DNA of 501 nucleotides from Escherichia coli (lineage in GTDB: Bacteria > Pseudomonadota > Gammaproteobacteria > Enterobacterales > Enterobacteriaceae), in the NCBI RefSeq assembly GCF_003334335.1, contig NZ_QOWQ01000180.1; one strand, 5' to 3'. Made by a program: the position numbers and the translations under genes. Positions 45 through 239 of the stretch are shown here, piece by piece. A model generated the notes under the pieces. That model was not told the DNA's origin. It saw nothing but the letters and a program-made list of their open reading frames with translations, and made no database searches. The number at the start of each line of letters is the position of its first letter. Positions within the stretch are counted from its first letter, which is position 1.

Positions 45-239
45 ATGACATTTGTTCATCAGGTGATGCTGTACTTCTGTACGGCGGTCTGTGTGCTGTA
101 TCTTCTTTCGGGTGGGTACAGGGCAGTGCGCGATTTCTGGCGCAGGCAGATTGATAAAAGGGCCGCAGAGAAAATCAGCGCCAGTCAGTCAGCCGGAGCA
201 AAAACAGAAGCCCCACTCATTCCGGAACAACCTTCTTAA
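45..239 (+). CDS. Hypothetical small membrane protein (64 aa) with one predicted N-terminal transmembrane helix, a basic juxtamembrane segment and a Pro/Glu-rich C-terminal tail
   Basis: Seen in sequence: ATG at 45 is the first start after an in-frame TAA at 36..38, and the ORF ends in a double stop TAATAA at 237..242. A weak purine-rich SD-like stretch GGTAAGAAA (34..42) lies just upstream. The translation MTFVHQVMLYFCTAVCVLYLLSGGY has a roughly 18-residue hydrophobic core (residues 7-24) followed by RAVRDFWRRQIDKR, which by the positive-inside rule suggests N-out/C-in topology. An in-frame ATG at 66 is an alternative start. No homologue recognised from memory. Confidence 0.55.
   Translation: MTFVHQVMLYFCTAVCVLYLLSGGYRAVRDFWRRQIDKRAAEKISASQSAGAKTEAPLIPEQPS

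Follow-up and report, generated by a model that had tools for sequence, protein, structure and literature searches.

The short open reading frame in this stretch of Escherichia coli DNA raises two questions: whether it encodes a functional protein and, if so, what that protein does. The window, by which we mean the whole 501-nucleotide stretch analyzed, contains an ORF on the plus strand that runs from ATG45 to the TAA at 237–239 and has a product of 64 amino acids including the Met. RefSeq annotates a CDS with identical coordinates as a "DUF1378 family protein" (WP_024185459.1). The product matches Pfam PF07125 (DUF1378) over model positions 1–59 of 59 (E = 5.1e-35, 119.9 bits) and PHROG 494 (E = 4.8e-37), and it contains the family core LLYFCTxVCxLYLxSGGY(K/R)x(I/V)R; a search of NCBIfam gave no match for DUF1378. 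PF07125 describes proteins of about 60 residues from enterobacterial prophages, in agreement with the 64-residue product and with its occurrence in lambdoid, P2-like and Mu-like phages. DUF1378 is thus catalogued already in Pfam and RefSeq, and our finding re-describes a known domain of unknown function. No solved structure was found for DUF1378 or for DUF826, its downstream neighbor. The literature that names DUF1378 does so in passing and gives its function nowhere, and nothing relevant was found under the locus tags Z1467, ECs1209, ECs1210 and L0106. The "DUF1378" in PMC7213743 is a typo for DUF1738.

The ORF could in principle be a chance open frame inside a conserved regulatory or sRNA region rather than a functional protein. 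An sRNA gene and conserved non-coding motifs do lie upstream of it, and the reference annotation of phage 933W does not call it. However, pN/pS is 0.20 in frame compared with 2.5 and 2.2 in the remaining two frames. Frame, start and motif are also retained at 41–67% protein identity across unrelated phage backbones, and all 14 aligned diverse members match the Pfam model. Conservation of the frame in relatives had been set beforehand as a refuting check, and the ORF withstood it. Together, the pN/pS values and the conservation across divergent members refute a chance frame for practical purposes, leaving that explanation with next to no probability. We are nearly certain that 45–239 is a functional gene of the DUF1378 family.

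The sequence-only reading had asked whether translation might truly begin at ATG66 or later. These data uphold ATG45. About one third of family members have Leu in place of M8, so ATG66 cannot be the general start, while M1-T2-F3 is invariant or nearly so across DUF1378 members and ATG45 is kept in 82 of 82 loci. The 14 nucleotides preceding ATG45 are near-identical among the 82 loci. Divergent members have strong Shine-Dalgarno sites before this ATG at equal spacing: the position of the weak site in the window is occupied by GAGGTGA, AAGGA, GAGGA or GGAGGA in the divergent loci, both the P2-like and Mu-like ones and the lambdoid L086.

Table 1. Features in and at the edge of the 501-nucleotide window.
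Feature	Coordinates	Strand	Evidence or remark
sRNA −10 element	nt 1–3 plus 3 nt upstream		spans the left edge of the window, upstream of which the body of the sRNA is located
sRNA −35 hexamer, TTGACA on the minus strand	21..26	−	conserved promoter elements, Esr41 model matches
Weak Shine-Dalgarno, GGTAAG	34..39	+	5 nt before ATG45
DUF1378 family gene	45..239	+	RefSeq CDS, PF07125, PHROG 494, pN/pS
Predicted TM helix, residues ~3–25 (FVHQVMLYFCTAVCVLYLLSGGY)	51..119	+	Kyte-Doolittle, Hessa, AF2, pN/pS, invariant residues
Basic juxtamembrane helix, residues 26–44 (RAVRDFWRRQIDKRAAEKI)	120..176	+	charge, pN/pS, AF2 helical
Ser/Ala/Pro-rich tail, residues 45–64, variable, predicted disordered	177..236	+	pLDDT, pN/pS, length variation
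DUF826 gene, 5' part (96 aa, runs off the window)	265..501	+	RefSeq CDS, PHROG 311

Small proteins of this kind had also been called under-annotated, which for this ORF is accurate in the 933W reference record and not in RefSeq. The 933W annotation is wrong at this position, where a 148-aa ORF stands in place of DUF1378 and DUF826. That ORF extends the DUF826 frame too far upstream, starting at a GTG and spanning a DUF1378 ORF that is itself intact; pN/pS in this frame is 2.5. We therefore reject the DUF1378-DUF826 fusion protein suggested by PHROG 8301; P0126 and P0094 are sporadic frameshift read-throughs, not fusions. DUF826 is the usual downstream partner of DUF1378. It has a net charge of −15, and AF2 models it as a long helix over residues 20–50 with a disordered acidic tail. 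In Mu-like loci, a 66-aa ORF after DUF826 was considered as a holin remnant and rejected, given that it has neither class II holin similarity nor a PHROG match; in L179, a 66-aa ORF just before mom, which may be the one seen in L083, matches Zn_ribbon_Com.

What kind of protein is DUF1378? A single hydrophobic helix had been proposed for residues 7–24 (VMLYFCTAVCVLYLLSGG). The helix itself holds up, with its start moved from V7 to about F3. The Kyte-Doolittle 19-residue mean over residues 3–21 is 1.91, and a simple Hessa sum over residues 7–25 gives +1.2 kcal/mol, which is marginal hydrophobicity. The AF2 model is one continuous helix over residues 2–51, with pLDDT of 82–87 over residues 1–20. 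pN/pS for codons 7–25 is 0.15, and L9, Y10, C12, V15, L18, L20, G23, G24 and Y25 are invariant across the compared members, down to 41% identity. Conservation of this segment is stronger than a plain anchor would need. Net charge is 0 over residues 1–6 and +4 over residues 25–44. DUF1378 is very probably a bitopic inner-membrane protein with one TM, oriented N-out/C-in by the positive-inside rule only. By the same rule, the very short N-terminus is predicted with good confidence to face the periplasm and the basic helix and tail to be cytoplasmic. We reject a cleavable Sec signal peptide because no K/R precedes the hydrophobic core, the core is ~20 residues rather than 7–15, and R26 and R29 directly follow SGG-Y, so that the early mature part would be charged. 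A lipoprotein is likewise rejected, since neither LYFC nor TAVC fits the lipobox.

The helix carries two Cys, C12 (nt 78–80) and C16 (nt 90–92), which had been placed on the same helical face. Both are common in the family and neither is fixed: among 119 members, residues 12/16 are CC in 95, SC in 18 and CS in 4, no member lacks both, and the usual replacement is Ser. On a helical wheel the two lie 40 degrees apart (C12 at 20 degrees, C16 at 60 degrees), as expected for one face. However, one-sided conservation of the TM was not significant in a shuffle test (p = 0.22–0.40), and we do not retain a conserved face bearing both Cys, suggestive as the wheel is. For the same reason no interface can be named. 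The interchange of Cys and Ser argues for a role in small-residue packing, rather than in redox or metal chemistry.

The region that follows the helix is the most constrained part of the protein, with a pN/pS of 0.047 over residues 26–39. The basic cytoplasmic patch of the sequence-only reading is thus real and conserved, with two corrections: RAVRDFWRRQIDKR contains six K/R, not five, along with two Asp, and the conserved Y25 stands between the GG and R26. The tail behaves differently, with a pN/pS of 0.31 and pLDDT below 50 over residues 50–62 of the AF2 model. Family members are 59, 60 or 64 aa long, and members of 45–51 aa lack most or all of the tail. A Ser/Ala-rich segment ending in PLIPEQPS had been pointed out; it is present here as a variant tail, and its last four residues are found in about 22% of cluster representatives. 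The tail is dispensable, variable and cytoplasmic.

We then asked where the gene is found. This sequence occurs in 1006 of 5426 complete E. coli genomes (about 18%), in up to seven copies per genome. The family as a whole is tiny: 1.84 billion proteins include 14 representatives of it, and members turn up in 3 of 100,044 species genomes. Its hosts are Enterobacterales prophages only (Escherichia/Shigella, Mixta and Erwinia), where it fills late-operon accessory positions of lambdoid, P2-like and Mu-like phages, always on the late-gene strand in the five contexts. The usual cassette order is NanS-p esterase, antisense sRNA, DUF1378, DUF826. In lambdoid type A loci, the cassette stands directly upstream of the holin wherever the locus is long enough to show it; in lambdoid type B, DUF1378 lies between the endolysin and Rz; in P2-like phages, it follows lysC and the esterase. 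In the Mu-like and Mixta/Erwinia contexts it is far from lysis genes, so that three of the five contexts place it next to them. L169 and the E2348/69 prophages PP2 and PP5 have the esterase and have lost DUF1378 along with DUF826, and both genes are decayed in L180. The 36-aa form in L180 was considered as a minimal natural DUF1378 and rejected as a frameshifted, decaying copy. Temperate phages of Enterobacterales thus carry DUF1378 as a non-essential accessory gene.

No sigma-70-like promoter was found in the scanned regions around DUF1378 in L001, 933W (L173) or the P2-like locus L091, and the scan of the Mu-like locus L083 gave two matches only, both far downstream of the gene. The four contexts scanned thus contain no promoter-like site ahead of the gene. 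In SASA-linked contexts there is also no room for one, given that 21 nt separate the sRNA −35 element from the ATG. No T-run on the plus strand accompanies the hairpin that follows the esterase stop, and a terminator-like hairpin follows DUF826. It is likely that DUF1378 lacks its own promoter and depends on the late transcript (pR'/Q in lambdoid phages), in which case the protein would accumulate in the inner membrane late in infection. In Mixta-type loci, a terminator-like hairpin precedes DUF1378, which makes late co-transcription uncertain there.

On the opposite strand, the leader of DUF1378 overlaps the promoter of an sRNA. The elements TTGAC(A/T) and T(T/A)AAAA, separated by 16–18 nt, are conserved 21–22 nt from the ATG in lambdoid, P2-like and Mu-like loci, and the spacer sequence differs between loci while the −35 and −10 stay. 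The Rfam Esr41 model (RF02676) gives full-length matches on the minus strand at 23 and 28 bits, against a gathering threshold of 102 bits. The sRNA resembles Esr41 without being a member and is closer to PasA/PasC by position and terminator. PasA and PasC, which are real Hfq-dependent sRNAs (PMC8550237), lie on the same side of the esterase gene according to Table S6 of that paper. Because both esterase loci of E2348/69 lack the gene, that strain cannot serve as experimental support for DUF1378 expression.

As an overall explanation, we tentatively propose that DUF1378 is a late-expressed inner-membrane accessory factor acting at the membrane step of lysis or release. Its conserved TM, rich in Cys, Thr, Ser, Gly and Tyr, may act by helix-helix packing, either in self-association or in docking on some host-conserved membrane component. 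From a proposed position on the inner-leaflet surface, the basic helix could recruit the very acidic DUF826. In this way, DUF1378 may tune a general membrane property that governs the timing of lysis and release, rather than bind one particular holin. A specific holin partner is ruled out by coexistence with at least three unrelated holin families: class II; phrog_1350/PF16080 (L086, L091); and Phage_holin_8 with Phage_holin_3_7 (L180). A lysis or late-membrane role, taken as a claim in its own right, is possible and somewhat doubtful. In its favor are a holin-like build (small, one TM, charged C-terminus) and the nearby lysis genes in lambdoid type A, P2-like and lambdoid type B loci; against it, prophages without DUF1378 still have a functioning class II holin.

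Other explanations start from the neighbors of the gene. In 82 of 82 lambdoid loci where the contig allows this to be seen, the gene immediately before DUF1378 encodes a SASA/DUF6645 esterase, and 71 of 72 NanS-p loci have DUF1378 downstream, with esterase identities of 58–100%. The two genes stay together in three phage backbones, among them P2-like loci that lack DUF826 and have no holin next to the pair, and the spacer architecture between them is conserved. These data would fit a dedicated accessory of the NanS-p esterase that serves its positioning, maturation or release, the two genes forming one unit. NanS-p is a late structural protein in phi24B (bioRxiv 10.64898/2026.04.10.717836), and the esterase is reported to decorate capsids. 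However, the esterase is not an obligatory partner. Mixta, Ca. Erwinia and L183 carry DUF1378 without any esterase, the Mixta and Erwinia copies have no DUF826 beside them either, and an ADP-ribosyltransferase toxin takes the place of the esterase in L180-182; conversely, the deletions described above leave an esterase without DUF1378. Between the window type and 933W, the spacer-DUF1378-DUF826 DNA is about 87% identical and the NanS-p proteins only about 59%, indicating that the esterase and DUF1378/DUF826 recombine apart. The adjacency may simply reflect a jointly mobilised cassette, and a cytoplasmic, capsid-bound NanS-p has no obvious need for a membrane protein, so we consider an esterase accessory unlikely. 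We give a similarly low probability to a host-directed moron that benefits the lysogen by modulating a conserved host inner-membrane protein, whether in superinfection exclusion or as an AcrZ/MgrB-like regulator. DUF1378 does occupy known moron slots in three backbones among conversion-type genes (esterase, toxin, O-antigen acetyltransferase), and its TM is highly conserved. Since none of its phage partners is constant, a host target shared by Escherichia, Mixta and Erwinia would fit, and the hairpin after DUF826 would shield the holin from read-through in lysogens. However, without an upstream promoter or, in SASA-linked contexts, room for one, a gene inside late operons should yield little protein in a repressed prophage; PADLOC gave no defence match (E up to 0.1), and no candidate host target was identified.

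The abutting sRNA suggests a further possibility, that DUF1378 is a type I toxin-like membrane peptide whose leak in the lysogen is silenced by the antisense sRNA and which depolarises the membrane once the induced late transcript outruns it. The protein is small, hydrophobic and single-TM, the sRNA promoter keeps its place before the ATG in three phage types, any read-through mRNA would be fully complementary to the sRNA, and PasA and PasC are genuine sRNAs from this side of the esterase gene. However, the sRNA tracks the esterase and not DUF1378: E2348/69 has PasA and PasC without DUF1378, and Mixta, Erwinia, L183 and L180 have DUF1378 without the sRNA. The sRNA overlaps neither the ribosome-binding site nor the ORF, PasA is described as acting in trans on many targets, and type I toxins do not typically have a conserved cytoplasmic helix of 20 residues. 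We consider this explanation very improbable. Only slightly less so is the reading of DUF1378 as a small inner-membrane peptide that triggers or restrains phage lysis in general, whatever the holin. It would self-associate, shift membrane energisation late in infection, be checked in lysogens by the abutting antisense PasA/PasC-like sRNA, and help set the release of Stx and NanS-p. As a general membrane-energisation peptide, DUF1378 would work with any holin or SAR-endolysin system, and in Stx phages it would contribute to how early, and in what quantity, Shiga toxin and NanS-p are released. Our tentative choice remains an accessory factor at the membrane step of lysis or release.

DUF1378 is a conserved uncharacterised gene in a medically important operon. 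In Stx-converting phages it lies between the Shiga toxin/NanS-p cargo and the lysis genes. An effect on the membrane step of lysis would give it influence over when, and in what quantity, toxin and phage are released, whereas a role in serving the esterase would matter for how a virion-borne esterase is deployed.

How does DUF1378 compare with known systems? The type I toxins (tisB/istR-1, shoB/ohsC, zor/orz) also pair a hydrophobic peptide gene with an opposite-strand sRNA abutting its 5' end. Unlike in those systems, DUF1378 and the sRNA occur independently, the ribosome-binding site is uncovered, and the protein has a long conserved cytoplasmic helix. AcrZ, MgrB and the OAD gamma chain resemble DUF1378 in size, single N-terminal TM and short soluble tail, whereas DUF1378 is phage-borne rather than chromosomal and shares no homology with them (OAD_gamma and TraQ Pfam matches are at chance level only). 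Regulators or assembly factors of this sort, acting on larger membrane complexes, are what the sequence-only reading had in mind; the suggestion is a generic one, and no partner complex was identified for DUF1378. In activated pinholin S21-68, with TMD1 out of the membrane, a single TM remains, oriented N-out/C-in and bearing a charged C-terminal tail. DUF1378 is like this class II holin by architecture only, and the holin is expressed late from the same operon, two genes downstream. Unlike it, DUF1378 has one hydrophobic segment (~3–25) rather than two TMDs with a SAR first, is dispensable in prophages that have the holin, and also accompanies unrelated holins. Homology to holins is rejected: BLASTP gave no alignment and hhalign a probability of 0.2% against the adjacent class II holin, and no holin family in Pfam or PHROG matches DUF1378. 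Known antiholins are holin-specific and many are holin isoforms, whereas DUF1378 has no fixed holin and is not always beside lysis genes. Nevertheless, the role that we propose for DUF1378 is that of the antiholins and lysis-timing accessories (lambda S107, P2 LysA, P1 LydB and T4 RI), which are non-essential membrane proteins expressed late and encoded beside lysis genes.

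The ORF is a plain DUF1378 member and, given that membership and the RefSeq annotation of an ORF at the same coordinates, was already known as a sequence family. The protein matched Pfam DUF1378 (PF07125) end to end (E 5e-35) and also PHROG 494, whose category is unknown function; NCBIfam and PADLOC gave no match. The family is very small. At 90% identity our search gave 122 clusters, almost all from E. coli or Shigella, and at 50% identity only 14 representatives among 1.84 billion proteins. Among 100,044 species-representative genomes, DUF1378 turned up in three: Mixta tenebrionis, Ca. 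Erwinia dacicola and one Terrisporobacter contig. This last contig (T. mayombei NZ_JAHZMP010000153.1; 487 nt, low coverage, Firmicute assembly) has a DUF1378 with 88% identity and most likely entered the assembly as contamination from E. coli or a phage. Several E. coli strains carry chromosomal prophage DNA identical to the window, and related sequence was present in 1006 of 5426 complete E. coli genomes (median 2 places per genome, maximum 7) and in 306 phage records, mostly of Stx-converting phages.

The gene is conserved as a translated frame. We analyzed selection in 82 loci from viral contigs and two annotated records, comprising 28 distinct nucleotide versions. Over the whole ORF, pN/pS was 0.20, versus 2.5 and 2.2 in alternative frames +1 and +2. 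By segment, it was 0.23 in codons 1-6, 0.15 in codons 7-25 (TM), 0.047 in codons 26-39 (basic patch) and 0.31 in codons 40-58 (tail). ATG45 is kept in 82/82 loci, and M1, T2 and F3 vary little or not at all among members down to 41% identity. M8, which corresponds to ATG66, is replaced by Leu in 32 of 99 cluster representatives. Divergent loci have the ribosome-site motifs GAGGTGA, AAGGA, GAGGA or GGAGGA where the window has a weak GGTAAG. Therefore neither of the two doubts raised by the sequence-only reading, that the frame might be unconserved or that translation might start at ATG66 or later, survives. Since pN/pS exceeds 2 in both alternative frames, the overlapping open frames, a 44-aa TTG ORF and an upstream extension of the DUF826 frame, are not coding.

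The residues picked out from sequence were borne out: residues 7-24 are VMLYFCTAVCVLYLLSGG, with Cys at C12 and C16. The hydrophobic run is longer than proposed, however, starting at about F3 rather than residue 7, and the Kyte-Doolittle 19-residue mean peaks at 1.91 over residues 3-21. A simple Hessa-scale sum for residues 7-25 is +1.2 kcal/mol, and the TM helix is therefore only marginally hydrophobic. AlphaFold2, with a 14-sequence alignment, predicted a single continuous helix over residues 2-51 (pLDDT 82-87 over the TM part) and a disordered tail. The basic segment RAVRDFWRRQIDKR is present, but it contains six K/R rather than five, plus two Asp, and it does not directly follow GG, as conserved Y25 stands between. 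Because net charge is 0 over residues 1-6 and +4 over residues 25-44, the positive-inside rule would predict an N-out/C-in topology. A cleavable signal peptide was rejected (no positive n-region, a core of ~20 residues, Arg directly after SGG-Y), as was a lipoprotein (no lipobox). The tests run did not place DUF1378 among holins, lipoproteins or known defence proteins, nor did they identify it as a signal peptide.

The family core reads M-T-F-x4-LLYFCTxVCxLYL(V/L)SGGY(K/R)x(I/V)R(N/D)(Y/F)x(R/Q)(R/K)(K/Q)ID..AAEK, and the tail beyond it is variable or absent. Conservation of the Cys pair, a check the sequence-only reading had proposed, is high but not invariant: among 119 sequences, C12/C16 are Cys/Cys in 95, Ser/Cys in 18, Cys/Ser in 4 and other in 2, and no member lacks both. 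Cys and Ser interchange, which suggests that these positions serve as small residues and not in disulfide or metal chemistry. On a helical wheel, C12 and C16 lie on the side of Y19 and G23. One-sided conservation of the TM helix was not significant in a shuffle test (p 0.22-0.40), and residues 9-25 are conserved all round the helix.

In JE86-ST05, the genes run from the Q antiterminator through a DNA methyltransferase and tRNAs, TerB and DUF3927 genes, a SASA-family (NanS-p type) esterase, DUF1378, DUF826, a class II holin, lysozyme and an Rz-type lysis protein to terminase. Phage PhiR5_1, whose record calls the lysis protein Rz, has the same order. This places the ORF within a lambdoid prophage's late (pR'/Q) operon, at the site that holds stx and nanS-p in Stx phages.

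We found DUF1378 in five genomic contexts, always on the late-gene strand and as an accessory gene. The first, lambdoid type A (esterase, DUF1378, DUF826, holin, sometimes ydfR, lysozyme, Rz), is kept at all 82 loci within the limits of each contig. In the reverse view, DUF1378 comes next in 71 of the 72 NanS-p loci with enough downstream DNA (esterases 58 to 100% identical to the window's). P2-like prophages have Y, K, lysB, lysC, esterase, DUF1378 and tail gene R, without DUF826. Mu-like prophage right ends have gin or tail-fibre assembly, then esterase, DUF1378, DUF826 and com/mom. In Mixta, Ca. Erwinia and a metagenomic contig, a 44-51-aa DUF1378 follows baseplate, tail-fibre and tail-fibre assembly genes, with a convergent O-antigen acetyltransferase and a DNA methyltransferase beyond it; esterase, DUF826 and holin are all absent from these loci. 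Perhaps by coincidence, an O-acetyl-adding enzyme sits there where other phages have an O-acetyl-removing esterase. The second lambdoid type has two holins, endolysin, a 138-aa ORF, an Enterotoxin_a/Scabin-like ADP-ribosyltransferase in the usual esterase place, DUF1378, and an Rz gene akin to one from a Pantoea phage. Here a slip in an A7 run shortens DUF1378 and a DUF826 remnant follows, so the pair is decaying.

DUF1378 is most often flanked by the esterase upstream and DUF826 downstream, and none of its partners is obligatory. Locus L169 and both esterase-bearing prophages of EPEC E2348/69 lack both small genes, the latter having PasA or PasC in their place in the esterase-holin spacer. 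DUF1378 and DUF826 come and go as a pair. At least three unrelated holin families coexist with DUF1378: class II holin; phrog_1350/PF16080 (divergent lambdoid locus L086 and the Y position of P2-like L091); and Phage_holin_8 plus Phage_holin_3_7 (L180, second lambdoid type).

Coordinates of the DUF1378 gene, its neighbours and related features
Feature	Position	Strand	Detail
DUF1378 ORF	window 45-239	+	64 aa
DUF826 gene	window 265-501, on to L001:8555		96 aa
TTG ORF, rejected	window 20-154	+	44 aa, overlaps DUF1378
DUF826 upstream extension, rejected	window 91-264		+1 frame
Predicted sRNA region	window 1-26 plus ~90 nt upstream (L001:7912-7990)	-
Predicted sRNA -35	window 21-26	-	TTGACA (reverse complement)
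Predicted sRNA -10	left edge of window	-
Hairpin 3' of DUF826, window-type locus	L001:8565-8593
Hairpin 3' of DUF826, Mu-like locus	L083:4204-4229
Interval with ST933Wp43, 933W	L173:5262-5754		148 aa as annotated
DUF1378 ORF, 933W	L173:5262-5441		59 aa
Rfam matches between stxB2 and nanS-p, 933W	L173:2778-3037		sRNA-model matches
Tail-fibre context	L175:5001-6312; L176:1551-2834; L183:4001-5040
Toxin to DUF826 remnant	L180-L182:3143-4400		ADP-ribosyltransferase 268 aa
Esterase-holin spacer without both genes	L169:4965-5338; L177 (PP2):2466-2914; L178 (PP5):2231-2666

Scans of regions around DUF1378 gave no sigma-70-like promoter in the window-type locus, 933W or P2-like L091; the Mu-like locus gave two matches only, both far downstream. 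The spacer from esterase stop to DUF1378 start (~140 nt) begins with a GC hairpin that shows compensatory changes between contexts and has a T-run on the minus strand only. The minus strand carries a putative sRNA unit: TTGAC(A/T) 21-22 nt from the DUF1378 ATG, a 16-18-nt spacer unrelated in sequence between loci, T(T/A)AAAA, a ~75 nt body, and a hairpin with U-run just past the esterase stop. This arrangement is seen in lambdoid, P2-like and Mu-like loci and is absent where the esterase is absent. The Rfam Esr41 model matches there full-length but weakly (23 and 28 bits vs a gathering score of 102). EPEC PasA and PasC are Hfq-dependent minus-strand sRNAs directly after the esterase gene (PMC8550237 Table S6), and an "esterase-PasA-holin-lysozyme" arrangement has been described (bioRxiv 10.64898/2026.05.13.724894); the window sRNA resembles PasA/PasC in position and terminator. 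We conclude that window 1-26 holds the promoter of a predicted PasA/PasC-like antisense sRNA, which would account for the conserved DUF1378 leader and leave no room for a DUF1378 promoter. Together with the lack of a T-run on the plus-strand hairpin, this implies that the late transcript probably spans both nanS-p and DUF1378. Directly 3' of DUF826 lies a strong terminator-like hairpin (10-12 bp stem, T-rich tail) in the window-type locus, ahead of the holin gene, and in the Mu-like locus; it would stop non-Q-antiterminated transcription before the holin. Separately, the stx-to-holin interval of 933W is dense in sRNA genes, with STnc100 (207.7 bits) and AsxR (88.1 bits) above the Rfam gathering score and an AgvB-model match below it (40.9 vs 56 bits).

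The reference annotation of 933W (NC_000924) shows a single 'hypothetical protein', ST933Wp43, which is the DUF826 frame run upstream from GTG across an intact, unannotated DUF1378 ORF. This artefact appears to underlie PHROG 8301 (139 positions). DUF826 itself has a net charge of -15 and a predicted short helix (10-17) and long helix (20-50; pLDDT ~90), then a predicted disordered, acidic, Pro-rich tail with a conserved (T/M)M(L/M) at its end; we found no solved relative. The "head completion protein" label in some phage records is supported neither by PHROG 311 (unknown function) nor by any library searched. According to a preprint, NanS-p (gp84 of phi24B) is a capsid-decorating structural protein, attached via its N-terminal DUF1737 domain and processed after release; the preprint does not mention small proteins downstream of NanS-p (bioRxiv 10.64898/2026.04.10.717836).

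DUF1378 is thus a conserved gene for a small protein with one hydrophobic and one basic helix, carried in late-operon accessory slots; we infer an inner-membrane location and late expression. Nothing in these findings is surprising. To the known family they add the confirmed start codon, a likely topology, the Cys-pair pattern, the map of five contexts with a strong though non-obligatory linkage to the esterase and DUF826, the leader's overlap with a predicted sRNA promoter, and the 933W annotation error. Pathogenic E. coli commonly carry the gene, whose place is between toxin cargo and lysis genes. A non-functional ORF is effectively excluded by the conserved frame. A type I toxin-like role for the peptide, in connection with the antisense sRNA, is improbable. 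An accessory factor specific to NanS-p is doubtful. A host-directed moron, acting for example to exclude superinfecting phages or to regulate a host membrane protein, is about equally doubtful.

The single most likely role, held tentatively, is a general effect on membrane state that times lysis or release. The strongly conserved TM helix may pack with itself or with a host-conserved membrane component, and the basic helix, at the membrane surface, could recruit acidic DUF826. We found neither holin homology nor a fixed holin partner, and this tentative role draws on the lysis genes beside DUF1378 in three of the five contexts and on the holin-like build of DUF1378.
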